Shown: positions 9,315-27,200, numbered from the stretch's first letter. The stretch: DNA of 64,000 bases from Desertivirga arenae (GCF_017355785.1 NZ_JAFEWE010000002.1:110618-174617); one strand, 5' to 3'. Made by a program: numbers and translations. The notes: generated by a model from the letters alone, not told the origin.

Positions 9315-9736
9315 AATATGCTGTTGAAACTGACGGATTGCGATCGCAGTTTGCCAGTGCTGCGGAGCTTAAAAAACTGCGTTTAGAAACAAATAAGGCC
9401 GCTTTCCTTACGGAGAACAGCCTTATTTGTTCGTGCTCGCAACCGGGCATTTCTCGAACCATTTTATAGATGATTTAAGGAAATTAGCAAGCGTTGAAAC
9501 AACTTCCCATCATTAAAATAGCGTAGCTTCCAATTGATCTCTCCACATAATGAACCTTTTTTGATAGTTAGAATAATCGTGAACAATACGACTAAAACCG
9601 GGGGGATTAGTTCCGGCAAGTGAAAGCAAAGGTGAAGGAACAAAAAAATAATTCCCACCTAATACCAGATGTGTGCGTTTTTGTGTTTAGATTAAAGTTG
9701 GCGCGAAGACATGACGCCCCTTTACAATCTATTAAT

Positions 9737-10939
9737 ATGGACAACACCCCGGAAAGAATCTCGACGCTTGAAAAAGAAAACTCTATCCTCCAGGCGACAA
9801 TAAATTCTTTGCAAGAATATCAAAACGAGAGAGATGCTCTGCAAAAAGCTTACAATGAAAGCCAGGTTCGTTTCAGAACTATTTTTGAAGAGTCCTCACT
9901 GGGAAATAAGATTATCAATGAAGAATTGAACATAATTCAGATAAACAAAAGCTTGATTGATATATTGGGTTACAACGAAGAGGAACTGGTAGGAAGAAAG
10001 ATAATAGAGTATACCCATCCAGATTATGTGCAGGGATGGGAGAAGTTAAGAAAAGAGTTATGGTCGAAGGAAAACGCTCGTACCTCCTTTAGTATTGACA
10101 CATGTTTAATCAGGAAAGATAAATCGACCATCTGGTGCCATGTAAGTTCAATTATTTTTCATGATAATGGGGACCGACTTGGCTACACGATAATAGAAGA
10201 TATTACTGACAGAAAGGAAGCTCAACGAATTAAAGATGAACTTTTAAAGCGCGACCATCTACTGGAGCTCAAAATCCAGGAACAAAAAAAGCAACAGGAA
10301 TTGTTTCACGCTACGATTCGTGCCCAAGAAGAAGAAAGAGAGCGAATAGCAGAGCAGTTACATAATAGTTTAGGGCAATTGCTCTATGCTGCAAAACTCA
10401 ACCTGGATCAAATAAAACCAGGCGAAGACCGAGAAATAAATGAGATAAACAGAAAGCAACTCAGTAAAACGGAAGGGCTTATAGCAGATTGTATTACTGA
10501 ATGCAGAAGAACCTCCCATGGGTTATTGCCAATGATCTTAAAAGATTATGGTCTGCGGGCAGCAATCGCAGATCTATGTGAACAGTTGAACCCGGGTTTA
10601 AACATAAAATGGCAATTTAACAGCTCGCATGCCATTAAAGATAAGTATGTAGAAGTGGTAATCTTTAGAACAGTGCAGGAACTTTTATTAAATGTAGTGA
10701 AACATGCTGCTGCAACTAAAGCCTTCTGTAAAGTGGATATTTCTAAGAGCAGGATTTCCCTGTCAGTGGAAGATAATGGTAAGGGTTTTGACCCCGGCAA
10801 AATCGAGGGGAGAGGTATCGGGTTAACGGCGCTAAAAGGTAGAATCGAATTGATGGGCGGTACTTTGAATATCTCAAGTAATGTTAACGGGGGAACCGTA
10901 ATCAGCATACAACTGCCCCGGGGAGTGTCTAAAGAATGA
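9737..10939 (+). CDS. PAS-domain sensor histidine kinase of HisKA_3 / NarL-partner type.
   Basis: PAS block (FRTIFEESSLGNKIIN...EEELVG), coiled coil, H-box 'EEERERIAEQLHNSLGQLL' and HATPase_c G-boxes (DNGKGF, GIGL). The likely start is MDNTPER at 9737; the track ORF begins at 9620. Confidence 0.8.
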   Translation: MDNTPERISTLEKENSILQATINSLQEYQNERDALQKAYNESQVRFRTIFEESSLGNKIINEELNIIQINKSLIDILGYNEEELVGRKIIEYTHPDYVQGWEKLRKELWSKENARTSFSIDTCLIRKDKSTIWCHVSSIIFHDNGDRLGYTIIEDITDRKEAQRIKDELLKRDHLLELKIQEQKKQQELFHATIRAQEEERERIAEQLHNSLGQLLYAAKLNLDQIKPGEDREINEINRKQLSKTEGLIADCITECRRTSHGLLPMILKDYGLRAAIADLCEQLNPGLNIKWQFNSSHAIKDKYVEVVIFRTVQELLLNVVKHAAATKAFCKVDISKSRISLSVEDNGKGFDPGKIEGRGIGLTALKGRIELMGGTLNISSNVNGGTVISIQLPRGVSKE

Positions 10940-10989
10940 CCGGTGAGTCAGTCAAAATAAATGCACCTCTAACATAAGGTGGTAGAGAT

Positions 10990-11307
10990 TTAACGCAATC
11001 TGTTTCTGTTAAATGCAATCAGAAACTCCGGTGCAGTTGTCATGTGTTCCTGATGTCCGGACTGTTCAATATGTGGGTTCGCTTTGTGCAGCTTTGTTTT
11101 AACCAGTTGGTGAAGCTGAAGGAGCATTTCCGGAAGACCATTCTTTGATAGAGTTGGATGGAATTTTCTTTCAAGTTCAAGCTTTTGCGCGCTGGTCGCC
11201 AAGCAAAGGTCCCAGCCTTCGTCTGCTTTAAACCAATATTCCTGGGCACAATTACTTAAATCAAATAGATACATCCTGGCTTCAAATTCTACTGTCGTGC
11301 TTATCAT
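10990..11307 (-). CDS. Hypothetical protein, family 'A' (about 105 aa). It is a paralog of 19457..19771.
   Basis: Shared residues with the second copy: ..NCA.EY.FKAE..W....A...LPE...QLV...L.....FL.A. Its start lies 1 nt after the stop of the upstream 44-aa ORF. Confidence 0.6.
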   Translation of the reverse strand: MISTTVEFEARMYLFDLSNCAQEYWFKADEGWDLCLATSAQKLELERKFHPTLSKNGLPEMLLQLHQLVKTKLHKANPHIEQSGHQEHMTTAPEFLIAFNRNRLR

Positions 11308-11308
11308 C

Positions 11309-11443
11309 TTATTTCTTTTTACTTCCTGTTAATGGTTCAGCTTTTGAAACTGTTTTTTTACCTGACTGGTAGTCCGACATTGATTTCTTAGTTTCTTTAC
11401 TGGCCGCCTTTTTGACGTTTTTTCCGCCTCTGTCTTTGCTCAT
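11309..11443 (-). CDS. Small Lys-rich protein (44 aa), MSKDRGGKNVKKAASKETKKSMSDYQSGKKTVSKAEPLTGSKKK. It is below the ORF-track cutoff.
   Basis: Found by manual translation. A homologous 40-aa ORF precedes the paralogous 105-aa gene at 19333. The spacing is identical in both copies (stop, 1 nt, ATG). Confidence 0.5.
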   Translation of the reverse strand: MSKDRGGKNVKKAASKETKKSMSDYQSGKKTVSKAEPLTGSKKK

Positions 11444-11445
11444 AA

Positions 11446-11907
11446 TTATTTAGTTACACTTGTTTTCATTAGTAGCCTGATTGCTGAATCTTTCAAATTC
11501 GTGTTTAAATCCTCGTAGTGATCAAAACGATATTGATAAAGCTTTTCTATACTCCCTGGTCCTTCAGCTATCAACGCGGCTATGTGTTTCAAAGCACCAG
11601 CCTTCGCCATTTCCATTGCATGTATCCGTTGTTCATAGCCGTAATACATATCTTTTTCCGAAGGCAGGGAATAAATACTATTTGGAAAAGAGCATTGCTC
11701 ATCTACTAAATTTCCTGTTTGTGATCCCATTAAGCCGGGCCGAGGCACCCGAATAAAATCATTAAAGGATACTTCTGTTACCTTTGTGTCGTTTTTAAAC
11801 ACACGATAGAACTTGCTGAAACGATGTTTCTCCATAATTTTTCTGATTAAAGCAATGTTAAGATTAAAGAGTACCGAATCAGTTGGGTATTCCCTAAGTA
11901 CGGGCAA
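11446..11907 (-). CDS. Hypothetical protein (153 aa). It is the first gene of a tight three-gene unit with the 44-aa and 105-aa ORFs.
   Basis: The ORF stop is separated by 2 nt from the small-ORF ATG. No motif recognised. Confidence 0.5.
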   Translation of the reverse strand: MPVLREYPTDSVLFNLNIALIRKIMEKHRFSKFYRVFKNDTKVTEVSFNDFIRVPRPGLMGSQTGNLVDEQCSFPNSIYSLPSEKDMYYGYEQRIHAMEMAKAGALKHIAALIAEGPGSIEKLYQYRFDHYEDLNTNLKDSAIRLLMKTSVTK

Positions 11908-12075
11908 AAGAGAGAGTTTGGTAGCTTTTTTCGTGAAGTTTAATTGATTCTAAAAGGCCAGGAAGAACCTTCGAAAACTTTCATCCTCCGTTTGGGAGTT
12001 TCTCTCATGAAGTTTTTTCTAAAGGTAACATTACTTTTGAGATTCCCCTGTATATTCCTGATTATTATTTATTAA

Positions 12076-13029
12076 TTGCCTGTAGCTATTCCCGGGCAAC
12101 AAAAGAAACTTAAACATCGGCAACTTTATCCTACTGCATTTTTAGTACCTTGCTGGTATTACATACCGTTCAAAGATCTACTATTGAAGTTCCATATCAT
12201 TCACTCCACATCTTATTCTTACAGCAGAGAAGTATTTTTGTCTCCGCAAATTCTACGGTTAAAACCGTCCACCCATATCCACGCTATTATCAGAGATTAT
12301 AAGCTGGTTTGTGAACCGCCACAAAAAAGCATCCATTGGCTGCAGGACGCTTTTGGAAACAGCCTTGCCCGTATAATATTTCCCGGTAGCCTTAATTCTT
12401 TATCTATTAATGTATCCTTTAATATTGAGCCTATAGATTTCGATCCTTTCGATTTTTATCTCGAAGATCAGGCCATGATTTTCCCTTTCGAATACGAGCC
12501 GGAAACCAAAAGGGCATTATGCGCCTACTTTGAAATTGCTGAATCAGGACCATTTCTAAAAGTTTTTCTTGAGGGGCTGAAGGTAGAAAATGTATCCACT
12601 GTTGATCTTTTGTTGCAGGTTAACAGGCGTATTTTTGAAACTATTGCTTACACAGAAAGAGAGGAAGCCGGCATTCAGACTTGTGAGGATTCTTTATCGG
12701 GTAAAACCGGAAGCTGTCGAGACGTCGCCTGGCTACTGGTTCAGGTATTACGTAATTTAAACATTGCTGCTCGTTTTGTTTCAGGCTACCTTCTTGAATC
12801 AGGAGAAGGGATAACAGACCGTATCTCTCTTCACGCCTGGACAGAAGTTTTTTTGCCGGGAGCGGGCTGGCGGGGCCTTGATCCAACAACCGGTTTATTC
12901 ACAGGATCGGGACATATCCCTCTTGCCGTTAGTTCAAGCGCATCAGATGCCGCGCCCGTTTCGGGTAGTGTGAGTGAATGTGAGTCAAAACTTAGTTTTT
13001 CAAGTACGATCAAGCGGCTTTACAACTAG
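12076..13029 (+). CDS. Transglutaminase-like family protein (bacterial N-terminal domain plus transglutaminase core).
   Basis: Family-typical 'KFHIIHSTSYSYS' N-terminal motif. The core contains the Cys motif 'GSCRDVAWLLVQVLR..ARFVSGY'. The true start may be the TTG at 12184. Confidence 0.7.
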   Translation: MPVAIPGQQKKLKHRQLYPTAFLVPCWYYIPFKDLLLKFHIIHSTSYSYSREVFLSPQILRLKPSTHIHAIIRDYKLVCEPPQKSIHWLQDAFGNSLARIIFPGSLNSLSINVSFNIEPIDFDPFDFYLEDQAMIFPFEYEPETKRALCAYFEIAESGPFLKVFLEGLKVENVSTVDLLLQVNRRIFETIAYTEREEAGIQTCEDSLSGKTGSCRDVAWLLVQVLRNLNIAARFVSGYLLESGEGITDRISLHAWTEVFLPGAGWRGLDPTTGLFTGSGHIPLAVSSSASDAAPVSGSVSECESKLSFSSTIKRLYN

Positions 13030-13236
13030 TAGTCCGCTTCTCTTAATATGCATGAGATAAACACATAAGAACAGGTCTTATCTGAACTTTTAGAACGTTA
13101 AGTATAAAAACTCTACTGATTAATTTTAATCCTATAAATAACGGCAAGTACAAATTGTATTTACTACAATAATATACTTAAGTGAGAATTGAGTGCTGCA
13201 AGTGCTTCTCTTAAGTAATAAGACTGTATAATCAGA

Positions 13237-14466
13237 TCAAGGAAGTGGAAGACGAACGGCGGCAATAGCCCCTTTTCCTGGTGTAGACTTCAATTCGAAA
13301 TTACCTTTTAACAAACTTATATTCCTTCTGATCCTGTCCAATCCAGTGCCTGCACCCTGAACTTCTTCAAGAATAAATCCTTTGCCATTGTCTTCAATTA
13401 CAATTACCATTTCATATCCAATTTCTTTAATAGACAAACTACCAGTGGTCGCTTGCGAATGCTTCATGATATTGACCAGCAGCTCCTGCACAAGCCTGAA
13501 AACGATCATATCAAAATACTTATGAACCTTATAATTTGAAAAATGAATAGTACAACTGAAATCAATTGCCCAACGCGTCTCATCGCAGAGAGACTCAATG
13601 GCTGCTTTCAATCCAAAATCCTGTAGAATTGAGGGCATTAGTTGTTGAGAGATCAACCTACACTCACTAATAGAGGTGTGAAGAAGTTTACCTGCCTGAT
13701 CAATTGCCAGATAATCGGTCTCTTTCCTGTTTCTAGAATTCACTTTGCTCAACTCCATTTGGGTAGCAAACAGTAATTGCGCTAAACTATTGGTAATTCC
13801 ATCTGCAACTTGTTCCTTTTCTCTCTCCTGTGCGATGATAGTTTCCAGAAACTCTTTTTCCCTCAGTCTCTTATCGGTCTCTTCACGTTGCTTCCTTTCA
13901 GAAATGTCCTCGATAATGGTATATCCTAGTTTTTTTCCGTGGTCCTGAAAAACAATAGAAGTAATATGGCACCAAATTAAAGTCTTATCTTTTTTAATAA
14001 TACAGGTATCAATGCTGAAACTCCGGCTTTCGTTTCTCCACAGCGCATTTCTTAACACTTCCCAGCGAACTTTAAAATCCGGATGTGATAATTCGCTGAT
14101 ATCGATTCCGACCAGCTCCTTCTCGGTGTATTGCAGAATATCAATTAGTGCTTTATTTGCTTTAATTATTCGGAGATCAGAATCAATGATTTTCTTGCCC
14201 AACACCGATTGGTCAAATACTGCCCGAAATTTCATGTTTCCCTTATAGATGTCTTCAACACGGCTTTTGTTTAATTCAACAGTTTCTAGGGCCTGCCTAT
14301 GAGATGCTTCAAGGTACTTTATTTCGTTCTTTAATGCCTGAATTTCTTCGAGGTATTTTCTTTCGGTGTTTGTATTCAAAGTTCTTTTAATTAGAGTATT
14401 GATTTTTTCGCAAGCAAAAACTGCTGCAGGTATCCATAAAAACAACTCTCCAATTTGCCGGATCAA
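13237..14466 (-). CDS. PAS-domain sensor histidine kinase (HisKA_3 type). It is a paralog of 9737..10939.
   Basis: PAS block FRAVFDQSVLGKKIIDSD...EKELVG aligns with FRTIFEESSLGNKIINEE...EEELVG. H-box 'EKEQVADGITNSLAQLL' and HATPase G-boxes are present. Confidence 0.8.
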   Translation of the reverse strand: MIRQIGELFLWIPAAVFACEKINTLIKRTLNTNTERKYLEEIQALKNEIKYLEASHRQALETVELNKSRVEDIYKGNMKFRAVFDQSVLGKKIIDSDLRIIKANKALIDILQYTEKELVGIDISELSHPDFKVRWEVLRNALWRNESRSFSIDTCIIKKDKTLIWCHITSIVFQDHGKKLGYTIIEDISERKQREETDKRLREKEFLETIIAQEREKEQVADGITNSLAQLLFATQMELSKVNSRNRKETDYLAIDQAGKLLHTSISECRLISQQLMPSILQDFGLKAAIESLCDETRWAIDFSCTIHFSNYKVHKYFDMIVFRLVQELLVNIMKHSQATTGSLSIKEIGYEMVIVIEDNGKGFILEEVQGAGTGLDRIRRNISLLKGNFELKSTPGKGAIAAVRLPLP

Positions 14467-14688
14467 AGAACTTCTTTACTTAAGATAAACGCAAGTTATA
14501 CTAGTAACGCTTTTTATTAGGATTCTGTTGTTTACCAGGGCTGTAGAAAATTTGATTTGCAGGTAGTCTCTAAATTCTAGTGTTTGTCAGGTTGGTGTTG
14601 AGTTCCAAAGATTAATTTTGGTAAATAGGCGAAGTCCTTATATTATTATCTACCTTGTGCCCCTTACCTCACATAAAAAATAGAAAAC

Positions 14689-15558
14689 ATGCCCTTTGAT
14701 ATTTCGATGATTCTTCAAAAGAAGAAAATGCAGATTCTTGAAATCTGGATTAAAAAACAATTGGAAAGTGCAGATCTGCGGGAAGACCTGTTCAGTAATG
14801 AAGATTTACGCGCATCCTGCGAGGAATTACTGGAAGTCTTGCTGTCTTCACTTAACGAAGACAATTTGACAAATCCGGCTTCAGCAGACTTTGACGAGGT
14901 TAACGAAATATTAGCCGGCATTTCTATTTCTCAAGCGAGGCAAGGGTTTAACCCCCGGGAAACTGCGCTTTTTGTATTTGGATTAAAAGAAAGCCTGATT
15001 GAAATCCTTCAGGAGGAAATTAAAGACCCCCAGGACCTGTTTACTAATTGCTTTAAACTTAACCGTTTACTTGACACGTTCAGTATAACCACTTTTGAGA
15101 CCTTTATTAAGGGTCGAGAGGAAGTAATCTTAAGACAAACCGACGAAATTGCCGAGATTTCTACCCCTGTTATCCGAGTTTGGGACGGCATTTTAGCCCT
15201 GCCCATTATTGGAACTCTTGATAGCGCCCGCACCCAGGTTGTTATGGAAAACTTACTGGAGGAAATTGTGGCATCGGGAAGCAGCATAGCAATCCTTGAT
15301 ATTTCCGGAGTTCCGGCAGTAGATTCCCTGGTTGCGCAGCACCTTATTAAAACAGTTAGTGCTACCCGGTTAATGGGAGCCGAATGTATTATTAGTGGAA
15401 TACGTCCGGAAATAGCACAAACGGTAGTGCACCTCGGTATTGACCTTTCGAATATTGTAACTAAAGCCACTCTGGCGAGCGCTCTGAAATTTGCTTTTCA
15501 GTCAATGAAATTAGAAGTTAAAAGAGTACAGAAGGATAACAGAAATATAGTTAGTTAA
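14689..15558 (+). CDS. RsbR-like stressosome sensor protein (N-terminal sensory domain plus C-terminal STAS).
   Basis: The C-terminal STAS region ('VWDGILALPIIGTLDSARTQ...') is typical of RsbR. It is the first gene of an RsbR-RsbS-RsbT arrangement. Confidence 0.7.
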   Translation: MPFDISMILQKKKMQILEIWIKKQLESADLREDLFSNEDLRASCEELLEVLLSSLNEDNLTNPASADFDEVNEILAGISISQARQGFNPRETALFVFGLKESLIEILQEEIKDPQDLFTNCFKLNRLLDTFSITTFETFIKGREEVILRQTDEIAEISTPVIRVWDGILALPIIGTLDSARTQVVMENLLEEIVASGSSIAILDISGVPAVDSLVAQHLIKTVSATRLMGAECIISGIRPEIAQTVVHLGIDLSNIVTKATLASALKFAFQSMKLEVKRVQKDNRNIVS

Positions 15559-15559
15559 G

Positions 15560-15958
15560 ATGGAGAGAATTCCTATTTTAAGGATGGGACATTACTTGCT
15601 GGTAACCATTCAGGTGGAGTTGTATGACAGGCTAGCGTTAAGTCTGGAAACAGATCTTGTTCAAATGGTTAATAAAACGTCAGCAAAAGGTGTATTAATT
15701 GATATTTCAGCAGTTGCCATAGTAGATTCTTTTATGGGTCGGATTATAGGGAATATAGCAAGTATGTCTAAGATATTGGATGCTCAAACGGTAGTAGTAG
15801 GAATGCAGCCGGCAGTGGCCATTACTCTGGTAGAATTAGGACTTTCCTTGCCTAATGTATTTACAGCTCTTGACGTGCAAAAGGGAATGGATCTTTTAGC
15901 CTCGATGATTGATGTGGAGCAGGAAGATTTCGATGATTACGAGGATAATAATTCTTAA
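15560..15958 (+). CDS. RsbS-like STAS-domain protein (stressosome scaffold / anti-sigma antagonist type).
   Basis: 132 aa, single STAS domain ('LRMGHYLLVTIQVELYD...AKGVLIDISAV'). It starts 2 nt after the rsbR-like stop. Confidence 0.7.
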   Translation: MERIPILRMGHYLLVTIQVELYDRLALSLETDLVQMVNKTSAKGVLIDISAVAIVDSFMGRIIGNIASMSKILDAQTVVVGMQPAVAITLVELGLSLPNVFTALDVQKGMDLLASMIDVEQEDFDDYEDNNS

Positions 15959-16372
15959 ATGATTGTAACACTGTCGAAGGATGTCATGAAGGTGGTAAAG
16001 GATCAGGATGTGGTACCCTTTCGCAATCGGGTAAAAGAGTATGCTGTAAAAATCAAAATGGGCTTAGTCAATCAAACCAAATTGATCACTGCAGCAAGCG
16101 AATTGGTTCGGAACATGCTCAAATATGCCTCGGGAGGCGAAATCCTTATTGAAATAATAACAAAGGGACGAGATAATGGCATCCGCCTTACCTTTAAAGA
16201 TAAGGGTCCGGGAATTCCAGATATCGATCTGGCTATGAAAGACGGTTTTTCTACCGGAAAAAGTTTAGGGCTTGGATTGCCCGGAACTAAACGGCTGGTA
16301 AGCGAATTCGACATCAAAACTATTGTAGGTGAAGGCACTACAGTAAGAATAATAAAATGGGCTAATGGTTAA
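15959..16372 (+). CDS. RsbT-like serine kinase (HATPase_c, anti-sigma regulatory factor type).
   Basis: 137 aa. It carries an N-box (ELVRNMLKYA), G1 'DKGPGI' and G2 'GLGLPGTKRL'. It abuts the rsbS-like gene. Confidence 0.7.
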   Translation: MIVTLSKDVMKVVKDQDVVPFRNRVKEYAVKIKMGLVNQTKLITAASELVRNMLKYASGGEILIEIITKGRDNGIRLTFKDKGPGIPDIDLAMKDGFSTGKSLGLGLPGTKRLVSEFDIKTIVGEGTTVRIIKWANG

Positions 16373-17378
16373 TGCTACTCATCAAAGTTTCAGGGCAGAT
16401 GACCGGAGCTACTTTTCTATCCTGAAAAAGGAAATTCATAAACAGGCACATGATGAAGGATACTCGGATAAGAGGATCGCTGAACTGGATATTATTATTT
16501 CAGAGCTCACTTCTAACCTACATAAGCATGCAGTTGACGGTGAAGTACTTTTTGCTAATATAAAAAGTGAGGCAGGAGACTATCTTGAAATTATCACTAT
16601 TGACAATGGTCCGGGTATAAATGATGTTTCACGGATGATGGCTGATGGAATGTCAACTACAAACACGCTAGGACAGGGGCTCGGGAGCATAAAGAGACTT
16701 TCTGATACATTCGATATTTATAGCCAGAAGGATTGGGGCACCATTACTTTAAACCGCCTGTTGAAAGAGGCGAAAAAACAACGCAACCCCTTAATGTATG
16801 AGATACATGCACTCGTAGTTGCCAAGCCAGGCGAAACCCTAAGCGGAGATGGAACTTACTACAAAGTAACGCAGGAGTACTTTAAAATACTGATTGCTGA
16901 CGGACTTGGGCATGGGCCTGAGGCTAATAAAGCGGTAAATGAGGCTGTTAATGCATTTAAAATTTGTCCATTTCACAGTCCTGTAGAAGTATTGCGATAT
17001 ATAGATTCTTCTATCAAAAGAACCCGGGGAATGGTAGGAACTGTTATTATTTATAACAGGAAGACAAATATCTGGAGTGTGGCGGGCGTGGGAAATATCT
17101 CCTGCAAGTTCGCGAATGGACTATCCTACAAGAACATCATGTCCTACAACGGCATTATTGGTCATAACATTCCAAGAACCATGCATGATCAGGAAATAGC
17201 ACTTGCTGATTTTCCTCATTTTATTGCTTGTTCAGATGGGCTTAAGTCCAAATGGGAAAGCGCAAAGTATCCTCTGATAGGCAGATGCGATCCTTCTATA
17301 CTGGCAGCAGCAATCTACAAGGATTTTGCAAGAAAAACAGATGACATGTCGGTGGTAATCGGCAAAGTAAAAAAATGA
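16365..17378 (+). CDS. Fusion protein: an N-terminal HATPase (RsbW/RsbT-like kinase) domain plus a C-terminal PP2C/SpoIIE-type phosphatase.
   Basis: N-terminal 'ELTSNLHKHA...DNGPGI...GQGLGSIKRL'. Phosphatase motifs 'LIADGLGHGPEAN' and 'ACSDGL'. It overlaps the rsbT-like gene by 8 nt. Confidence 0.7.
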   Translation: MVNATHQSFRADDRSYFSILKKEIHKQAHDEGYSDKRIAELDIIISELTSNLHKHAVDGEVLFANIKSEAGDYLEIITIDNGPGINDVSRMMADGMSTTNTLGQGLGSIKRLSDTFDIYSQKDWGTITLNRLLKEAKKQRNPLMYEIHALVVAKPGETLSGDGTYYKVTQEYFKILIADGLGHGPEANKAVNEAVNAFKICPFHSPVEVLRYIDSSIKRTRGMVGTVIIYNRKTNIWSVAGVGNISCKFANGLSYKNIMSYNGIIGHNIPRTMHDQEIALADFPHFIACSDGLKSKWESAKYPLIGRCDPSILAAAIYKDFARKTDDMSVVIGKVKK

Positions 17379-17379
17379 T

Positions 17380-18573
17380 ATGATTGAGATTGTTCGTGAA
17401 ACTCTGGAAAATGAAATGGATCTGGTTCTTGCTCATAAAAAAGCTATGCGGCTGGCCGAACTCCTGGAGTTAACATTGACAACTCAAACAGTATTTGCTA
17501 CGGCGATTTCAGAAATTTCAAGAGAAATTATTGAGAAAACCAACACAGGAATTCTAACTCTGGGCCTGATTTCGGAAGAGGGGAAATTCTCATTACAAGC
17601 CTCCATACTTTGTGGCGGAGAGGATTGTTACGATTCGGAAAATGAAGGGTTCAGGTACGCTAAGAAGCTTGTTGCCCATTATGAGGAGTATGTAAATGGC
17701 AATAATAAGCTCATTAATCTGCAGATTAAGCTACCTGCACTAGTCAAGATAACTCCTCCAAGGATAGAGAAGTTTATTTATTATTTTGAGCATCTGATGC
17801 CCTTCTCGCCGTACGAGACTATTAAGAGGCAAATCAGCTCAATAACTCAAAAATCTGAGGCCCAGGAGGAAGAACTGAGGAACTCGAAATCTCTGGACGA
17901 TAAGAAGAACGAGTTTATATCCTTAGCAAGTCATGAACTTAAAACACCCGTTACCATAATTAAGGCTTTTGCTCAGCTGGCAAAAAAGTCGGGGCCAGAT
18001 CATTGCAGCGCTACCGTACAAACCTTTATTTCCAAAATAGAAGATCAGGCAAGTAAGCTTACTTCCCTTATTCAGCAATTGTTAGACGTTTCTAAAATGG
18101 AAAGGGATACGCTGGACTACCAAATGGATGAAGCAAGTCTCAATGGGTATATAACAGAAACTCTGTCCATTTTACAGCACACAATTCCCCGTCAGGACCT
18201 GAAAATTAAACTTGGCGCTGATGTGCTTGTAAGATTGGATAAGTTCAGAATGGAGCAGGTCTTTTCTAATTTATTAGGGAATGCGTCCAAATATTCTGCA
18301 GAGTCTACGATCATTACAATTACTACAACCTCAACGATCAAGGAAGTTGTAATTGCAATAAAGGATGAAGGTATGGGAATGTCTGAAGAAGATCTGGTAA
18401 GGGTTTTTGATAAATTTCACCGGAACAAAGAAGTAATCAACAAATATTCAGGGCTCGGCATGGGATTGTACATTTCTTCAAGAATTATTGCCGGACATGG
18501 AGGACGAATCTGGGTAAAAAGTGAATTAAATAAAGGTTCCACCTTCTATTTTTCTATACCTCTCTCTTCCTGA
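17380..18573 (+). CDS. Sensor histidine kinase (HisKA plus HATPase_c) with an uncharacterised cytoplasmic N-terminal domain. It is the last gene of the stressosome operon.
   Basis: H-box 'SHELKTPVT', N-box 'LLGNASKYS', G-boxes 'DEGMGM' and 'GLGMGL'. No transmembrane segment is evident. Confidence 0.8.
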   Translation: MIEIVRETLENEMDLVLAHKKAMRLAELLELTLTTQTVFATAISEISREIIEKTNTGILTLGLISEEGKFSLQASILCGGEDCYDSENEGFRYAKKLVAHYEEYVNGNNKLINLQIKLPALVKITPPRIEKFIYYFEHLMPFSPYETIKRQISSITQKSEAQEEELRNSKSLDDKKNEFISLASHELKTPVTIIKAFAQLAKKSGPDHCSATVQTFISKIEDQASKLTSLIQQLLDVSKMERDTLDYQMDEASLNGYITETLSILQHTIPRQDLKIKLGADVLVRLDKFRMEQVFSNLLGNASKYSAESTIITITTTSTIKEVVIAIKDEGMGMSEEDLVRVFDKFHRNKEVINKYSGLGMGLYISSRIIAGHGGRIWVKSELNKGSTFYFSIPLSS

Positions 18574-18611
18574 ACCGGTCCATACTTATCACTTCATACA
18601 CGGACGCATGC

Positions 18612-18797
18612 TTATATTGGCTCTGTATGATACTTATTTACGACTACTTCCATGTCGTTATATGTCACTACCAACTGATGGACGCCTTTATAGTCAACAA
18701 AAACCATATAGGGTTGTTCTTTTTTAAATCCCGGAAACCCTTTTCCGGAATATCTTAGGTTCTGTCCGGGAACTAACTTTTTTTCTCTTTTTATCAT
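18612..18797 (-). CDS. Small hypothetical protein (61 aa).
   Basis: ORF only, no motif. Confidence 0.25.
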   Translation of the reverse strand: MIKREKKLVPGQNLRYSGKGFPGFKKEQPYMVFVDYKGVHQLVVTYNDMEVVVNKYHTEPI

Positions 18798-18865
18798 AAA
18801 GTCTCTGTAACTGGTTCAAACAAGAACCAAAATATCACCCATAGCCTTACTTATTGTTTAAATTA

Positions 18866-19117
18866 TTATCTCTGCTTGTTCCTGCAGTAGGTGTCAATTT
18901 CATCACCTAAGCGCTCTGAATCCTGCAACGTAAAGTCGCCTTGAATACATTCCCAGGTATCTTCAAATGTTTTATGTACAATGCCCAGTACTTCTGTATC
19001 TGTCAAAATTTTAAAAACGTTTTTTCCGTTATGTGTGATAGGTTCTACTAAAAAGTTACTTCTGTCGCGGTCTTCAAGATTGGCCCAGATAGTGAAAGTG
19101 TCGTCATTTGAGTTCAT
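18866..19117 (-). CDS. Small hypothetical protein (83 aa).
   Basis: ORF with coding-like composition and no motif. Confidence 0.3.
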   Translation of the reverse strand: MNSNDDTFTIWANLEDRDRSNFLVEPITHNGKNVFKILTDTEVLGIVHKTFEDTWECIQGDFTLQDSERLGDEIDTYCRNKQR

Positions 19118-19332
19118 ACTTAAAACAACTATCGCTTTTTCTTATTGTTTAATAAACTGGTGAATTAAATCCGGTTCAAAAAACATTCGCTTTAAAGATG
19201 GATTGTGGTATTTAAATCCTATCTTGTAATTCTTCGCTAAAGCAATTTTGCACTATTAAAAGGGGAATACCGCAGCCCTTCTATAATCATCTACTAAATA
19301 TTCATCGCCTGTTAAGGGTTTAATCCAATTTT

Positions 19333-19455
19333 ATGAGCAAAGACAAAAAGAAAGCTCCGAGCCTTTCTGAAAAATCAAAAACGTCCGATTATCAAAAGGA
19401 TAAGAGTACACCTGCAAAAGCAGAACTAGTTTCAAACAAGAAAAACAAGAAGTAG
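19333..19455 (+). CDS. Small Lys-rich protein (40 aa), MSKDKKKAPSLSEKSKTSDYQKDKSTPAKAELVSNKKNKK. It is a homolog of 11309..11443.
   Basis: Manual translation. It shares the MSKD start, an SDYQ motif and a K-rich tail with the other copy. The TAG stop is followed 1 nt later by the ATG of the 104-aa gene. Confidence 0.5.
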   Translation: MSKDKKKAPSLSEKSKTSDYQKDKSTPAKAELVSNKKNKK

Positions 19456-19456
19456 G

Positions 19457-19771
19457 ATGTTAGATCAACTTTCAGATAAGTCAGTGCGCACCTTCGTATA
19501 CGAACTGAAGAACTGCGCCATTGAATATGGCTTTAAAGCAGAATCATGGATAATAAAAATGGCTACGGCTCTGGATAAAAAGAATATGGAAAAATTATTT
19601 TATCCCATGTTATTTATCCCTGTGCTTCCGGAAACTTCAATAGAAATGCTGCAGTTAGTGTCTGTTCGGCTCAAGTCAGAATCAGTTAACGAACATCACG
19701 ATACGGCTTTCGAGACTTCCAGCCTCAACTGCCGATTTCTCGTGGCGTATCATCCTGATAGAAAAGTTTAG
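19457..19771 (+). CDS. Hypothetical protein, family 'A' (104 aa). It is a paralog of 10990..11307.
   Basis: See alignment evidence under 10990..11307. Confidence 0.6.
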   Translation: MLDQLSDKSVRTFVYELKNCAIEYGFKAESWIIKMATALDKKNMEKLFYPMLFIPVLPETSIEMLQLVSVRLKSESVNEHHDTAFETSSLNCRFLVAYHPDRKV

Positions 19772-19785
19772 TTCCTTTATTTTTG

Positions 19786-19818
19786 AAAAAACACCCTTGT
19801 CTATAGGGTGTTTTTTAA
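19786..19818. terminator. Bidirectional intrinsic terminator (acaccct-tgtctat-agggtgt, flanked by A-run and T-run).
   Basis: Between convergent genes 19457..19771 (+) and 19873..20934 (-). Confidence 0.55.
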
Positions 19819-19872: not shown

Positions 19873-20934
19873 TCAGGTGCTAAGCTTCTTCAAATGAATA
19901 ACGTGTGATACGAAAGCACGGAGCATGCTCTTATGTTCAAGGTAAGTAATGCCAAATTCTTTACATGTTTCTTTAACCAACCGGTTTATCTGCCGATAAT
20001 GAATATGACTGATGCCAGGAAATAAATGATGTTCTACCTGGAAGTTTAAGCCTCCCAAAAACCATGATACCAAACGACTTTTTGTAGAAAAGTTAGCAGT
20101 AGTATTTATCTGGTGCACAGCCCATTCCTTCTGTATCTTATTCGATTCCTTATCGGGTTCCGGAAACTGTGTGCCTTCCACTACATGGGCGAGCTGGAAT
20201 ACCATACTGATAGAAAACCCACACGCAATTCCAACAATCAGGTATCCGGCAATCGCTTTTAGAAAACCAACAGTGATAATGGGGATAATTAAATAGACCG
20301 TGATATATAAAATTTTGGTAATCCAGAATATCCACTGTTGTTTTGAATCAAACTTCCGCTGATCATCCACCTTTTTTAGCCTGAAGTACTTTTCGAAATC
20401 CTGGAACAATACCCAAACCACGTAAGAGATTCCATAGAGGGCGACCCAATAAATGTGCTGAAATCTATGATACTTTTTACTGGCTTGTTCTTTATGCATT
20501 CTCATAAAGCGTATATCAATATCGTGGTCCAGGCCTTCAATATTGGTATAGGTATGGTGCTCCACATTGTGGCGCTGCTTCCAGAAATAAATAGTCCCGC
20601 CTAAAGCATTTAGTGCGTACGCTGAAGCTTCGTTAAGCCATTTGAATCTGGAAAAGCTGCCGTGACCTCCTTCATGCATAATGTTGAAGCCGATAAAGGC
20701 GAGGTTACACCCAAGCAACGCGCATAAGAGCACTGAAAGCAAGGCATTTGGCGTAAAGAACACGAGAGTTATATAAATGGTAATAGCAGAGATACAAAGT
20801 AAACAAGCTTTCAGCAGAAGTTGCCAGCCTCCTGACACAGGAAGTCTATTGTTCCTGAAATAGGCATTTACTTTTTCTTTCAATGCTTTGTGAAAAACAG
20901 GGTTGTTATTTTTAAAGGTGATTTTATTCATCAA
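19873..20934 (-). CDS. Membrane fatty-acid desaturase (histidine-box family).
   Basis: Three His boxes: HEGGHGS, HNVEHHTYTN and QVEHHLFP. There are several hydrophobic transmembrane stretches. Confidence 0.85.
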   Translation of the reverse strand: MMNKITFKNNNPVFHKALKEKVNAYFRNNRLPVSGGWQLLLKACLLCISAITIYITLVFFTPNALLSVLLCALLGCNLAFIGFNIMHEGGHGSFSRFKWLNEASAYALNALGGTIYFWKQRHNVEHHTYTNIEGLDHDIDIRFMRMHKEQASKKYHRFQHIYWVALYGISYVVWVLFQDFEKYFRLKKVDDQRKFDSKQQWIFWITKILYITVYLIIPIITVGFLKAIAGYLIVGIACGFSISMVFQLAHVVEGTQFPEPDKESNKIQKEWAVHQINTTANFSTKSRLVSWFLGGLNFQVEHHLFPGISHIHYRQINRLVKETCKEFGITYLEHKSMLRAFVSHVIHLKKLST

Positions 20935-21222: not shown

Positions 21223-21414
21223 TTAAGCTACTGTTACATTTACCGCATTAGGACCTTTACGGCCTTGTTCTACCTCATACTCAACACTGTCGTTTTCACG
21301 GATGTTGTCTCTAAGGCCAGAAGAATGAACGAAGATTTCGCTGCCACCATTAGTTGGTGTAATAAATCCGAAACCTTTAGTTTCATTGAAAAATTTTACT
21401 GTTCCTTTTTGCAT
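21223..21414 (-). CDS. Cold-shock protein, CspA family.
   Basis: MQKGTVKFFNETKGFGFITP... This is the canonical cold-shock domain with RNP motifs. Confidence 0.9.
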   Translation of the reverse strand: MQKGTVKFFNETKGFGFITPTNGGSEIFVHSSGLRDNIRENDSVEYEVEQGRKGPNAVNVTVA

Positions 21415-21842: not shown

Positions 21843-22298
21843 TTATCCTCCTGCTTTTGAAGCTGTATATGGCTCTTCAAAAAATATCCATATATGTCCG
21901 CCATTGCCCGAGCGCGAGCGTTCGAGATAGGCTGGAATGCTATACTCGTTACAGATTCTTAAAAAATTCCGGCATTCATTTAGCCAGTCCGCTTCATCAA
22001 AATCCGCGGCTATTAACCATGAAGTATTGTCTGTGAGTAAGGGATACACTCCTGCAACTTGCTTTCCTGCAAGATGGTTTATTAACTCCTGATCTGTTAA
22101 TGGCTTATATGTTTTATCCTGAAATGTTTGGAATGTTCCTCCTTTTGCCTGATGGATTCTGTAGCGGTGCGAGTCGTAACTAAAGACCGGGATATAATTG
22201 CCTTTGCCGTTCTTTTCCCATCTTACAGCAAACACATCTTCCCTTGCCTTAAATAGAGATTTGAAAAGACTGAGTTGCTCTGGAATTATAGAAGACAT
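21843..22298 (-). CDS. AEP/PrimPol-like domain protein (151 aa). It is probably truncated: motifs I and II are present, and the protein ends shortly after.
   Basis: Motif I 'WLIAADFDEAD' (hhhDhD). Motif II 'SRSGNGGHIWIFF' (sGxGxHhy). The protein ends 9 aa after motif II. The sequence downstream does not continue in another frame. Confidence 0.45.
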   Translation of the reverse strand: MSSIIPEQLSLFKSLFKAREDVFAVRWEKNGKGNYIPVFSYDSHRYRIHQAKGGTFQTFQDKTYKPLTDQELINHLAGKQVAGVYPLLTDNTSWLIAADFDEADWLNECRNFLRICNEYSIPAYLERSRSGNGGHIWIFFEEPYTASKAGG

Positions 22299-22301
22299 CT
22301 A

Positions 22302-22949
22302 CTAAGATCGTTCGTTAATAGCCTCTTCTATATCCTCTTTAATTAAATCCCAATCCTTACCGAGTAAACAGTGAGGGTCTGGATCTAAATCTGCTTCCTC
22401 AAAATCAGTTAAGTTACTTATAATCTTTGCTGCCTCATGTGTCCACTCGGAACGACTTTTATGTATTTCCAACATATCGTTTATATCATAAGTTCGGAGC
22501 AATTCATGCAGATCCCAGAAATCCTTCTTTCGCCCACCATTCTGAATAACATCCAGTTTCATCCCTACAATATCATGCAAAGAAGCTAGTCTGATATCAT
22601 CTTTAACAATATAAGGATCAATAAATGGGTCCATAGAATAATAAATATCAAGCTTAATTATTTCAGTAGGACTATTTCCTATTAGATAGGATTTTCCAAA
22701 GGCAGGGTTATCTCCAAAGTTTCCGGATACAAAATTAAAAGAGTTCTTCAGGAAGTTTTCAATGATCTCGAAGTCTACACTTCCATAAGAAGCATCTGTA
22801 AAGAGATCAATGTCAACAGACATTCTATGTCCAAGATGTAAGCTTAATGCAGTTCCTCCAACAAGCCTAAAATCCCGAAGTTCTTCTGCGTTCATTAATG
22901 TTAACAGGCTTGACTTTAATAAGTCATTTACAGTATTCCAATAAAGCAT
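22302..22949 (-). CDS. AbiEii/AbiGii-like nucleotidyltransferase (DUF1814) toxin-family protein.
   Basis: 'FRLVGGTALSLHLGHRMSVDIDLFTD' is the characteristic N-terminal NTase motif of the family. It overlaps the upstream HTH gene (ATG within the stop). Confidence 0.65.
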   Translation of the reverse strand: MLYWNTVNDLLKSSLLTLMNAEELRDFRLVGGTALSLHLGHRMSVDIDLFTDASYGSVDFEIIENFLKNSFNFVSGNFGDNPAFGKSYLIGNSPTEIIKLDIYYSMDPFIDPYIVKDDIRLASLHDIVGMKLDVIQNGGRKKDFWDLHELLRTYDINDMLEIHKSRSEWTHEAAKIISNLTDFEEADLDPDPHCLLGKDWDLIKEDIEEAINERS

Positions 22950-23458
22950 TACCGAACTTTTAAATGTCCCATTACATGGATTTCACCCGTAGGGAATTTT
23001 TGACTTAGTACAGCATTTACTTTTTCCAACCCATAAAATCTCGTAATCTCTTCTTTCTCTGCTTCATTACCACGCTCGAACACTCTTTGAATAACAAATT
23101 TAGAATGCTTCTCCCAGTCGATCCGGTTTATATCTGTATCCCAAAAAAGGATACTTCGGAGCATTGAAAGATTAGGATGGAACTTTCTTCTCTCGGCTTC
23201 AAGCTTGATTTTGGCCTCGTAATACTGCTGCAGTTCCATAAAGGTGCCTGTATCAATTCCTAAGGCTTTCTCTGCTTTAGTGGCGATGGAAGGATCTAGA
23301 GAAATTTCGCCATGTGCAATAGCCTCAATAGTACGCTGGTCCTCCTGAATTGAAAAGGCAAAGGAAGTTATACTAAGCTTTCTTTTTCTTAGCTCATGAT
23401 CCAGAATAGCTCCTGGACGAATTCCTTTGTATTTTTCAAGGTGCGAAAGCATATTCAA
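22949..23458 (-). CDS. HTH (XRE/HigA-like) antitoxin-type partner of the AbiEii-like gene.
   Basis: N-terminal HTH-like segment ('LSITSFAFSIQEDQRTIEAIAHGE...ATKAEKALGI'). Translationally coupled to the downstream NTase gene. Confidence 0.5.
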   Translation of the reverse strand: MNMLSHLEKYKGIRPGAILDHELRKRKLSITSFAFSIQEDQRTIEAIAHGEISLDPSIATKAEKALGIDTGTFMELQQYYEAKIKLEAERRKFHPNLSMLRSILFWDTDINRIDWEKHSKFVIQRVFERGNEAEKEEITRFYGLEKVNAVLSQKFPTGEIHVMGHLKVR

Positions 23459-24231: not shown

Positions 24232-27200
24232 TTATCGTATCTCAAACAACCCTCCATTGGTGTGTGAACTAACTTCAGGAGCATAGATACTTTGAATTGT
24301 GGCTACTCCAGAATTGAATATCCCTGATTGTACAGCTCGAAGATTGTATTCAAACCTATAGCTCCCTTTTGGAAGCTGGCTGATAAAGAAGTTAGTGGAA
24401 GCATCCTTAGTTACCTGGTAATAGTACAACCTATCTTCATATTTAAAGCCTGATAAAACATTTTCTGGTTCAGTTCCTGATGGCCTCAGGTCTTTTAAAT
24501 GCACATACTCCAAATTTCTTTCATTATCAAGGTACAGTATTACTTTGATAGTACTTCCGGGCGAAGGCTTGATAATTCCCTTTAACTCTTCATATACTAC
24601 CCCATTCTCGGTTTTCTTTTCTATAAAGTATTTGCGCTGAAGGAACAATCCTGAATGAGCAGGTCTAATCTCAGAGGCTTTCTGCTGGTATTGCCAGTGC
24701 AGGGCCGCAAAGTTCAGACTGGTTCCGGTATTTTTAATTCTGACTTTCGCGAGCTCAGGCTTGATATCCGTATTCCAATTGGTCTTTAGGTAACCTGTTG
24801 CAGTTTCTGCTTTTAATGAAGGTTTAAGTTTCATCAGATCTTCATCGCCAAGACTGATCTGAGAAGTACCTGAGTGGGCTGAAATTGTCGTTTCATATAA
24901 TAAAGCTTGAATCGCAGCAGCGGTAGCTTTGGTACTTTCCCAGGCCGCAACGCGTTTATTACATAATAGCCATACCTTCATCTCTTCTACAGCAGCTTTA
25001 TTATTAGTACATTCTGAGAATACTTTAATCAGGAGGGCTTGTGTCTCTATTGGTGACTGAATAACCGACATTCCCGCCTTATTTCCTTGCCAGAACATTC
25101 CCAGCTCAGCACTTCTTGTTGCACTTTCTTCGAGGGATTTCACAATTCTATCACTCAGTTCTGTATCTCCATACCTCCGGGCAATAAGGGCAATCTTTGC
25201 CTTTCCTGAAAGGCCCTCTTCTACCCAACGTGTCTGAACGGAGTTCAAGAAGTAATCCTTCGCTTTACTTAAATCGTTACCCAAAAGCTTTTCAGGAAAA
25301 TAGCTACGGGCAAACCACCCTTCAATATCTGCCTGATACCCTTCCTTCCCACGGTTCCGGTAATCGTTCAGGAGCTCCGATTCCACGTACTTCAGCAAGC
25401 CTTCTTTAACGCCTTTCAATTCTTCGTCACCCTGCTTCACCAAGAATTTTAACTCACCGAATCCTGTTAATAGATACTTGCTGATGTAGGGATCACCGTA
25501 ACGACTGCCAGAAAACCATGAAAACGCTCCATTAGACATTTGAGCTCTTTTCAGCTTCTCTGCATTTTCAGCAAGGCCTGCGCTTACTTTATTCAAGTCA
25601 AATAAAAGAGCTATTCGCCTTTTCTGCTCCTCTTCATCCTGAACGTCTTTAAGCCAGGGAGTTTCCTCAATCAAAACAGATTTAAGCTCTTTATTCTTTT
25701 CGAGGTCAGAAAGTAAAGCAGAACTGCTTGCCGCTTTCCATTGATTAAATACCTGTTGAATAATTTTATATTTACTGACTATATCAGAGGCAAAACGATT
25801 AGCAAAATAACGGTTGAAGATCTGTTCGGAGCATTCGTAAGGATACTCTATTAGGTAAGGCAGAGCCTGGATTGCAGACCACGAAGTATTTTGGGTGAAT
25901 TCGAACGCGAGGTTAATACTCTCCCTGCTACTGCTTTTGCTGTTGAAAAGTCTCTCTAAAACAAAGGTCTTATCCTCTCCTGACCGTACGATCATTGGCA
26001 TGGACTCTGTAATTTGTAACTTGTCTGGCAATACCGGAATTATATTTTCTTCTGCATCAGTATGGGTTCCGGTTACCGCACTTATTTTATAAGTAAGCGT
26101 GTTTATTTTTTCCGGGACCTTAAATTTATAGGAAAGTGCTGTCGCTCCATTTCCAAAGATCGAGAAGCTCTTATTGACTTCTGAACTCTCCAATAAATTG
26201 ATATGCTCTTTCTTTGCGGGATCGTAGATCTCGAGTTCAGCCCTGCCTTTAATTTTTTCGGAACCCAGGTTTACAACCCTTGCTTGTACTGTAATAAAGT
26301 CTCCCTCCCTGAAAAATCTTGGCATGTTTGCAGAAACCATCAGTTTCTTCTGAGTGAGTACTTCAATCTCACCGTACCCGCTTTCCATCTCCTTATTATG
26401 GGCAAAAGCTCGGAACTTCCAGGAAGTCAAAGATTCAGGCATTGTAAAGTCGAAGGATACTTCCCCTTTTGCATCGGCTAACAAGTGCGGATAGAAGAAG
26501 GCAGTTTCGTTAAAGTTCTTCCGTACCTGAATTTCCAATTTATCAGGAGGAGGCAATAGCGGTAAAGGCGGTGCTTTGAGTTCGATATTTGCAACCTCAT
26601 AAACTGCATTATCTTCTACAACTAAAGCTTGTAGGGAAGGTGGTGTCGCTCCTACTGGCTGGTCAATCCTTACTTCTGCATTTGGATCTCCTTCTAAGGT
26701 TTTCACCCCTGGATCTTTAATGGACATCCCGTTGCCAAATTGGATCAGTAGAGGAAATCCTTTCAATGGCCTGATTCGTTTATCTTTAAAGTATTTACAG
26801 CTAACAATAAGGTCGCGTCCTACAGGCACCCGCAGTTTGAAGTAGCCGTTTTTATCTACCGAAGTAACAAAAGAGGACCCGTCGATCCTTATATTTATCC
26901 AAGGATATGCTAGTGCTGTGTGAATTACTTTCCCAACTACGTCAAAGCCGTTTTTGAATAGCAGTAAATTCCTTCTATAAGCGGCATCAACAACAGTTCT
27001 GTTATTTTTAGTCTTGTTAGCCTTATGCTCCAAATCTTCGAATGGTTCATCATAGGTATAGTAAAAATTTCTATAACTTGAAGGGTGATCGTTTATTTTC
27101 TCATATATCGACTTATCCATCTCTGCGAAGTACTCATCTTCATCCAGCGCGTTTGAAGAGAACAGAGACTGGAAGTCTGAAGTGTTCCATTGGTAATAAA

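Follow-up and report, generated by a model that had tools for sequence, protein, structure and literature searches.

The closest points of comparison for the genes described here are the small basic proteins associated with the ribosome and the gene sets of the bacterial cold-shock response. RMF and Sra/RpsV of Escherichia coli, together with bTHX, bS21 and bS22, are 25–60 residues long, strongly basic, devoid of an independent fold and expressed in a stress-linked manner. Cold-shock gene sets comprise CspA-family chaperones and desaturases, and include the Des/DesK-DesR system of Bacillus and the rbp-rpsU operons of cyanobacteria. In a stretch of 64,000 nucleotides (nt) from Desertivirga arenae (NZ_JAFEWE010000002.1:110618-174617; the whole stretch analyzed is hereafter called the window), two copies of a gene pair were found in which a Lys-rich peptide of 40 or 44 residues is followed at once by a partner protein of about 105 residues. 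The peptide is comparable to the ribosomal group in its basic, fold-less character; unlike it, none of that group has a translationally coupled partner of ~105 residues. As in the cold-shock sets, a cold-shock-domain (CSD) gene, a desaturase gene and a small basic gene are co-located, often with PAS kinases and response regulators adjacent. In contrast to those sets, neither peptide nor partner is homologous to any of the components, and the window copies lie outside a csp-desaturase operon. The pair is very probably real and coupled. As to what it does, we tentatively favor, at somewhat less than an even chance, a lineage-specific low-temperature microprotein with a coupled binding partner and RNA or the ribosome as its target.

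The two copies, A and B, and the hairpins that follow them are arranged as follows.

10990..11307, minus strand: partner A, an orphan protein of 105 residues with an alpha/beta model, whose ATG comes 1 nt past the stop codon of peptide A
11309..11443, minus strand: peptide A, 44 residues, 13 of them Lys, isoelectric point (pI) 10.25, MSKDRGGKNVKKAASKETKKSMSDYQSGKKTVSKAEPLTGSKKK; RefSeq WP_256439345.1
19333..19455, plus strand: peptide B, 40 residues, 13 of them Lys, pI 10.0, MSKDKKKAPSLSEKSKTSDYQKDKSTPAKAELVSNKKNKK; RefSeq WP_256439346.1
19457..19771, plus strand: partner B, 104 residues, paralogous to partner A, with its ATG 1 nt past the stop codon of peptide B
10964..10981, minus strand: weak terminator-like hairpin, 9 nt past the partner A stop, then CATTTATTTT
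19786..19816, no strand assigned: strong hairpin with A/T-run flanks, AAAAAACACCCT-tgtctat-AGGGTGTTTTTT, between partner B and a convergent desaturase gene

The four open reading frames (ORFs) proposed in the initial annotation, two small and two of about 105 codons, were reproduced exactly in our ORF listing, and the 1-nt spacing claimed for both copies can be read in the DNA as TAA-g-ATG in copy A and TAG-g-ATG in copy B. The proposed homology between the copies also holds. In BLASTP comparisons the peptides share 20 of 44 residues (E 2e-6), with MSKD, SDYQ and a Lys-rich tail in common, and the partners, aligned over 94 residues, are 33% identical (E 2e-16) and display the residue pattern NCA.EY.FKA..W...LPE..QLV..FL.A. 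Hidden Markov models (HMMs) built from homologues outside the window match only two places in its 64 kb, copies A and B, with E-values of 1.3e-20 for peptide A, 8.5e-16 for peptide B and 4.4e-29 for partner B. Beyond the window, dozens of genomes and metagenomes contain this gene pair, and 40-residue orthologues of peptide B are present in loci L001 and L009. Copies A and B are paralogues of one operon module that is specific to Sphingobacteriaceae. The small ORFs had been called unannotated; in fact RefSeq already contains the genes of both pairs, and a third gene of copy A described below, each entered as a hypothetical protein of Desertivirga arenae (Sphingobacteriaceae). The hairpin behind copy A matches the consensus scan and folds weakly (-6.8 kcal/mol, z -1.45); the one behind copy B folds at -15.6 kcal/mol (z -4.17) and is likely a bidirectional terminator separating the convergent units.

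With a profile made from 17 peptides, 481 clusters (90% identity) were obtained. Among the best 120 of these, the members are 42–46 residues long except for three longer gene calls, and all are named only "hypothetical protein". Gene callers applied independently in ENA, JGI, Logan and NCBI records predict the small gene as well. The core consensus is MSKDKGGKN.KK...KK..SDYQ.GKK.VSK...KKK, with six invariant residues (M1, K12, S23, Y25, Q26 and K29) and 14 more columns conserved to 90% or above. A divergent clade B, with the consensus MS[KR]DKKKAPSL.EK.KTS.YQ.DK, is paired with its own clade B partners. In a codon comparison of the 17 peptide genes, the mean proportion of nonsynonymous differences (pN) is 0.33 versus a saturated synonymous value (pS) of 0.79, and the ratio of the corresponding rates (dN/dS) in close pairs is 0.17–0.46. 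Purifying selection spans the whole peptide and is strongest at the center (S.YQ.GK), not at the 3' end of the gene. The small ORF, proposed from the start as a true coding gene, does not evolve as non-coding DNA would; both genes of the pair are real and under selection, and the conservation of the peptide is position-specific, not merely compositional. Because conservation reaches at least 90% at 20 of its 44 positions, the peptide is suggested to have a specific docking site. Its net charge is +5.6 to +9.5, its pI about 10 and its grand average of hydropathy (GRAVY) -1.5 to -1.8 (-1.52 for peptide A, -1.78 for peptide B). The AlphaFold2 model from a 48-sequence alignment contains no secondary structure (predicted local distance difference test score, pLDDT, 65; predicted template-modeling score, pTM, 0.19), and is consistent with a protein that would be disordered until bound to something.

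For the partner, a word-indexed search gave only a handful of relatives. The family, collected with an HMM from 1.84 billion representatives searched exhaustively, comprises 94 representatives (50% identity) at E<=1e-3, 70 of them at E<=1e-10, nearly all single-domain proteins of 102–110 residues. In a 72-sequence alignment W32 is the sole invariant residue; L17, E23 and A98 are more than 90% conserved, and the motifs Y.YDL.N.A.E.GFK..E.W and YL.AYN..R.R stand out. No Cys or His is conserved in this alignment, and therefore a redox or metal role of the partner is unlikely. The AlphaFold2 model is moderately confident (pLDDT 77.8, pTM 0.64) and predicts helix 2–23, strand 33–37, helix 39–48, strand 52–56, helix 59–76 and strand 95–99, with a variable, low-confidence linker before the last strand. 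A subfamily of partner paralogues carries an N-terminal extension of ~15 residues (..ADAQQ..L..QVNLFLFDLKNE..; sequences P0066, P0071, P0075 and P0076). Genes for such N-extended proteins (L019 10873..11085, minus strand; L088 2842..3129; L093 3505..3804; L098 250..549) lie ~70–120 nt upstream of a peptide gene, which gives the order partner paralogue, peptide, partner.

A small cationic peptide beside a small protein could also be the precursor of a secreted bacteriocin or other ribosomally synthesized and post-translationally modified peptide (RiPP), with an immunity or recognition protein as its partner; the GG at residues 6–7 of many members and the invariant Tyr-Gln would suit such a role. 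We regard this as extremely improbable. The GG is replaced by GS in many members and is gone in clade B, there is no hydrophobic segment, and the peptide is conserved throughout instead of being divided into a leader and a variable core. The partner does not have the fold of a RiPP recognition element or of PqqD, and the recurrent neighbors include no transporter or protease and no modifying enzyme of the radical SAM, YcaO or lanthipeptide type.

Pairing was followed from both sides, in a partner-first sample of 13 genome loci and a peptide-first sample of 80 metagenome loci. Both scans were seeded with narrow motifs and are biased samples, the peptide-first one covering clade-A-type motifs only. 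At 11 of the 13 partner-first loci, a Lys-rich ORF of 40–46 codons ends -4 to +2 nt from the partner ATG, which confirms in other genomes that the small ORF is conserved upstream of homologues of the 105-residue protein. At the other two, L020 and L022, the partner follows a desaturase gene directly, without a peptide gene. In the peptide-first sample, once exact duplicates had been removed, a partner gene comes after 43 peptide genes and is missing after 30, and 6 peptide genes reach the contig end; at the five stand-alone loci inspected, the sequence downstream of the peptide gene differs. The stop-to-ATG gap falls within -4 to +4 nt in all 56 scorable pairs: -4 in nine, -1 in 10, 0 in five, +1 in 24, +2 in seven and +4 in one. 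The claim of a duplicated, functional unit is sustained by this recurrence and spacing, with one restriction: the pair is strongly conserved but not obligatory, as 30 of the 73 resolvable peptide genes (41%) have no partner and two partners have no peptide. The peptide is autonomous, and the partner is a frequent add-on that follows roughly 60% of peptide genes. Pairwise distances of peptides and partners correlate with r = 0.47, a value expected from co-inheritance and compatible with, but no proof of, co-evolution. One metagenome ORF of 98 codons (P0073) fuses a full peptide (MSKDKGGENVKK...KKNK) to the first ~55 partner residues, by either a natural loss of the stop codon or a sequencing artefact.

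The small ORF might instead be a regulatory upstream ORF or leader with a functionless product. It abuts the partner start and places A-rich Lys codons just upstream of the ATG, a context said to favor initiation in Bacteroidota, and its tail is mostly NKKK where a partner lies downstream and mostly GKKK in stand-alone genes. We hold this to be very improbable. The 30 of 73 peptide genes without a partner speak against it. Since these stand-alone peptides retain KKK, the tail belongs to the protein itself and does not serve only as A-rich context for the next start; this, with the selection along the whole length, strongest at the center, excludes a pure leader-peptide reading.

Type II toxin-antitoxin modules offer another parallel. 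Like them, the module consists of two small, co-directional, abutting genes and is found in several copies per genome with varied flanks (two in the window, at least two in L106, where extra partner paralogues also occur); in an addiction module the small upstream gene would encode the antitoxin and the ~105-residue downstream protein the toxin. The likeness ends there. No RelE/ParE, MazF, PIN, Doc, HipA, GNAT, ribbon-helix-helix, helix-turn-helix or AbrB family or fold was recognized, PADLOC, Pfam and NCBIfam give no match, and the AlphaFold2 model of the upstream product has no DNA-binding fold. Both genes occur singly, and the module is a stable member of operons with a housekeeping-type desaturase. 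Its distribution is narrow and vertical and without a link to mobile elements: the plasmid, phage and viral-contig collections searched contain no match to the peptide-partner module, and every source that names a genus or family is a Sphingobacteriaceae taxon (Mucilaginibacter, Pedobacter and uncultured Sphingobacteriaceae among the partner-first loci). An addiction module has, in our estimate, only a very slight probability.

The families are taxonomically narrow, restricted, as far as the sources name a taxon, to soil Sphingobacteriaceae. Both lack a name, a model in Pfam or NCBIfam and a solved or recognizable fold, and we could find no paper on either; "new" here means without detectable relative. 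Searches of Pfam, NCBIfam, PADLOC and PHROGs gave nothing meaningful for the peptides, the partners, the 129-residue product of a gene upstream of peptide A or an 83-codon ORF near copy B (both described below). Sequence searches of the PDB with the peptide and partner profiles found nothing significant, the peptide profile matching nothing at E<=10 with ribosomal chains included, and Foldseek found no relative of the partner fold at E<=1e-3 in the PDB or BFVD. Nor does the peptide match the ribosome-associated small basic families in Pfam or NCBIfam at E<=1. Membership in the RMF or Sra families was considered and rejected, with hhalign probabilities, for RMF and Sra sequences entered by hand, of 1.2% for RMF (only YQAG aligned) and 0.2% for Sra. 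For Sphingobacteriaceae, our literature search retrieved nothing relevant on cold transcriptomes, on small proteins rich in lysine or on adjacent csp and desaturase genes, and no transcriptome or proteome covering the peptide or partner genes.

The best clue to function comes from the surroundings of the peptide genes. All ORFs around 97 non-identical peptide loci were clustered; the ORF cut-off in this clustering hid small genes, and CSD genes were searched for separately, including by tblastn. A 244-residue membrane fatty-acid desaturase (Pfam FA_desaturase) is encoded on the same strand, 10–47 nt upstream of the peptide ATG, at 38 of 96 loci, 28 of them with a partner gene, seven without and three not assigned. 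An Omp85-family barrel gene lies downstream of the module at 19 loci, and PAS histidine kinases and response regulators occur near the peptide genes at ~10. Linkage to bona fide cold-shock genes, such as a member of a cold-shock regulon should display, is seen at 22 of the 97 loci, which have a CSD gene no more than 3 kb away, nearly always on the upstream side and on the same strand. Two arrangements recur, csp-desaturase-peptide, with or without a partner, and csp-terminator-peptide. Up to 1.5 kb from a peptide gene, CSD genes number 8.7 per 100 kb; farther away in the same loci their density is about ten-fold lower, 0.9 per 100 kb (3 in 332 kb). In M. aquariorum, independent gene calls give the row CSD (64 residues), FA_desaturase (243), peptide (44) and partner (107). 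A genome resembling M. rubeus contains two modules ~4 kb apart, one reading desaturase, peptide, partner, Omp85, and the other partner paralogue, peptide, partner, followed by orphan genes that include a member of the third-gene family described below. In the window, a desaturase gene and a csp gene lie beyond copy B.

19873..20934, minus strand: desaturase gene beside and convergent with copy B, 353 residues; Pfam FA_desaturase 4.2e-40
21223..21414, minus strand: csp gene, 63-residue CSD protein (Pfam CSD 3.9e-21, and tblastn), upstream of and co-directional with the desaturase gene

Since the families recur beside cold-shock-protein and desaturase genes, an undescribed low-temperature adaptation factor is suggested, and we consider a cold link of the module evenly balanced. 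The stress-regulon membership proposed in the initial annotation survives in this narrower form. The peptide would be made together with Csp and the desaturase when the temperature falls, as the neighborhood implies. The partner is most likely translated by termination-reinitiation, because its start lies within 4 nt of the peptide stop, and this would tie partner synthesis to translation of the peptide. The partner would most likely act as a dedicated binding protein of the peptide, as chaperone, adaptor or antagonist. Polycationic and fold-less, the peptide itself may dock on a structured polyanion, most naturally on RNA or the ribosome, by a purely functional analogy with RMF, Sra, bS21 and bTHX; that a sequence of such low complexity is so well conserved would agree with docking on structured RNA, as in ribosome-associated small proteins. 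This choice of target is rather doubtful. It is likewise rather unlikely, though worth stating, that the module represents a new cold-acclimation factor that docks on the ribosome or on RNA or, alternatively, on the surface of the desaturase or membrane, with a coupled novel partner that sets its activity. Such a factor, at the same low probability, would be unrelated to CspA, RMF, HPF or known hibernation and cold-shock factors and peculiar to Sphingobacteriaceae.

Several observations weigh against a low-temperature factor that acts on RNA or the ribosome. The neighborhood is a matter of co-location, not function. In the window itself, copy A has neither a csp nor a desaturase gene within 3 kb, copy B is convergent with its 353-residue desaturase gene and not in an operon with it, and that desaturase subfamily has no homologue near the other peptide loci. 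The metagenome loci are phylogenetically non-independent, and the percentages are rough for this reason and because the peptide-first motifs are clade-A-type only. The partner is near neutral (median pI 6.6), and simple charge neutralization of the peptide is therefore not evident. Finally, the desaturase and Omp85 neighbors fit a membrane-directed role equally well.

In such a role, the peptide, with or without its partner, would act as an accessory of the desaturase or on the membrane surface. The desaturase gene is the commonest immediate neighbor, and in L020 and L022 it is the partner alone that stands behind it. More specifically, the peptide may attach to the head groups of anionic lipids or to the di-iron desaturase on its cytosolic face and so tune lipid desaturation or envelope remodeling. 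We judge the general and the specific form alike to be unlikely. The peptide has no hydrophobic or amphipathic segment and no predicted helix, the partner has no conserved Cys or His for electron carriage, and at 58 of 96 loci, copy A among them, no desaturase gene lies directly upstream.

The initial annotation had noted that both copies flank a PAS-kinase and stressosome block. The block is real in the window, as judged by Pfam, and its stressosome-like part sits between copies A and B.

14689..18573, plus strand: stressosome-like row, RsbRD_N+STAS (289 residues), STAS (132 residues), RsbT-like HATPase (137 residues) and two more genes

The last two genes of the row encode a 337-residue protein, whose sole match is to HATPase_c_2 at the N-terminus, and a histidine kinase with HisKA (397 residues). 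A general-stress hydrophilin or a nucleoid-associated protein under the control of these adjacent RsbR/RsbS/RsbT-like proteins and PAS kinases would account for the position of both copies and for an extremely hydrophilic, basic peptide, and the PAS kinases and response regulators near other loci would agree with it. Yet no STAS or Rsb protein is among the recurrent neighbor families at other peptide loci, and this part of the earlier proposal does not extend beyond the window. Hydrophilins are defined by more than 6% Gly and a hydrophilicity index above 1. The peptide is like them, and like late-embryogenesis-abundant proteins, in being very hydrophilic and predicted to be disordered, in a host from desert or soil; it is unlike them in being conserved by position, not composition. 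Peptide A has four Gly among 44 residues, and peptide B none among 40. Protectants and DNA binders that depend on composition usually drift, in contrast to the 20 highly conserved columns of the peptide, and Pfam gives no match to Hc1, HU, CsbD or KGG. We find a role of this kind decidedly unlikely.

Upstream of peptide A lies a third gene of the same operon.

11446..11835, minus strand: third gene of copy A, 129 residues, MEKHRF...YGY..AMEMAKAGAL...YRFDHYEDLN; RefSeq WP_207532449.1

Its stop codon is 2 nt ahead of the peptide A ATG (TAA-tt-ATG), in agreement with the spacer first described for a third coupled gene; the length given for it then, 153 residues, has to be corrected to 129. The open frame runs on to a TTG at 11907, but all homologues and the RefSeq entry begin at the ATG at 11835. 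The family is present in 12 loci, mostly ending 2–18 nt ahead of the peptide gene, and has no Pfam or NCBIfam match and no significant PDB match in a profile sequence search. Leaders of operons headed by this gene were compared for the window (11836..12040, minus strand) and for L007, L034, L068, L078 and L082. They share a CTTAGG-type hairpin with a CTGAT loop, an ATCAG(A) 9–14 nt ahead of the ATG that is complementary to this loop, and a TTACCTTTA-type box farther upstream. Minimum-free-energy folds show by turns the local hairpin or a long-range pairing of CUGAU with AUCAG (z -0.1 to -1.6), while RNAalifold finds no consensus and Rfam no match; a translational control element is possible.

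A further orphan family of ~84 residues (FHLLI...VLP...G.FL.ID.G..LG...F...F.C) occurs near peptide genes in eight loci, including L043, L051, L077, L085 and L089, and its gene overlaps the 129-residue gene by 4 nt in L077 and L060. In the window, an 83-codon ORF divergent from copy B (18866..19117, minus strand) gives a weak HMM match to it (9.9 bits). The family may be a fourth member of this lineage-specific neighborhood.

About 100 nt upstream of the 244-residue desaturase gene there is a conserved element, TCCAGGCC[G/A]ACAGTGAA-N6-10-CCCTCTCTGTTT, preceded by a hairpin-like repeat, ACGCA..CTTAATCA..TGCGT. It lies at about 4940..5100 in L010, with equivalents in L017, L019, L033, L040, L048, L052, L063, L069, L084, L090, L094, L097 and L103, and is not present in the window. 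RNAalifold finds no consensus structure in either conserved leader, and Rfam reports no family in the window region and nothing but a tRNA in five Mucilaginibacter loci; for lack of an RNA family or structure, the element is more likely promoter or operator DNA. A common -7-type promoter box was suspected, but it is not enriched over shuffled sequences.

Other genes of the window complete the picture. Copy A and a transglutaminase-like gene divergent from its operon (12076..13029, plus strand; Bact_transglu_N and Transglut_core) are bracketed by two paralogous, ~38% identical PAS histidine kinase genes (9620..10939, plus strand, and 13237..14466, minus strand). The first kinase has a HisKA_3 dimerization domain, the type found in the Bacillus thermosensor DesK. 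Cross-linking of the invariant Gln to Lys by the transglutaminase was considered and dropped, because this adjacency is found at no other locus. Just beyond the csp gene, 21843..23458 is a defense or toxin-antitoxin islet. It consists of an AbiEii nucleotidyltransferase toxin gene (22302..22949, minus strand; Pfam 1.8e-22), a DUF6922 gene upstream that shares 1 nt with it (22949..23458, minus strand) and, after the AbiEii gene, a truncated AEP-TOTE primase-domain fragment (21843..22298, minus strand; model positions 1–143 of 230). A very long ORF of 2109 codons follows (24232..30561, minus strand).

Proteins of fewer than 50 residues are the least explored part of bacterial proteomes, and few of them combine a conservation signature with a clue to physiology. 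The module described here is a microprotein family tied to a partner of undetected fold and to the two textbook arms of the cold response, Csp and membrane desaturation. If the cold link is true, the module would provide a tractable entry to the adaptation of translation or of the membrane to temperature in soil Bacteroidota. It would also be a clean natural model of termination-reinitiation in a phylum whose initiation reportedly does not depend on Shine-Dalgarno pairing.

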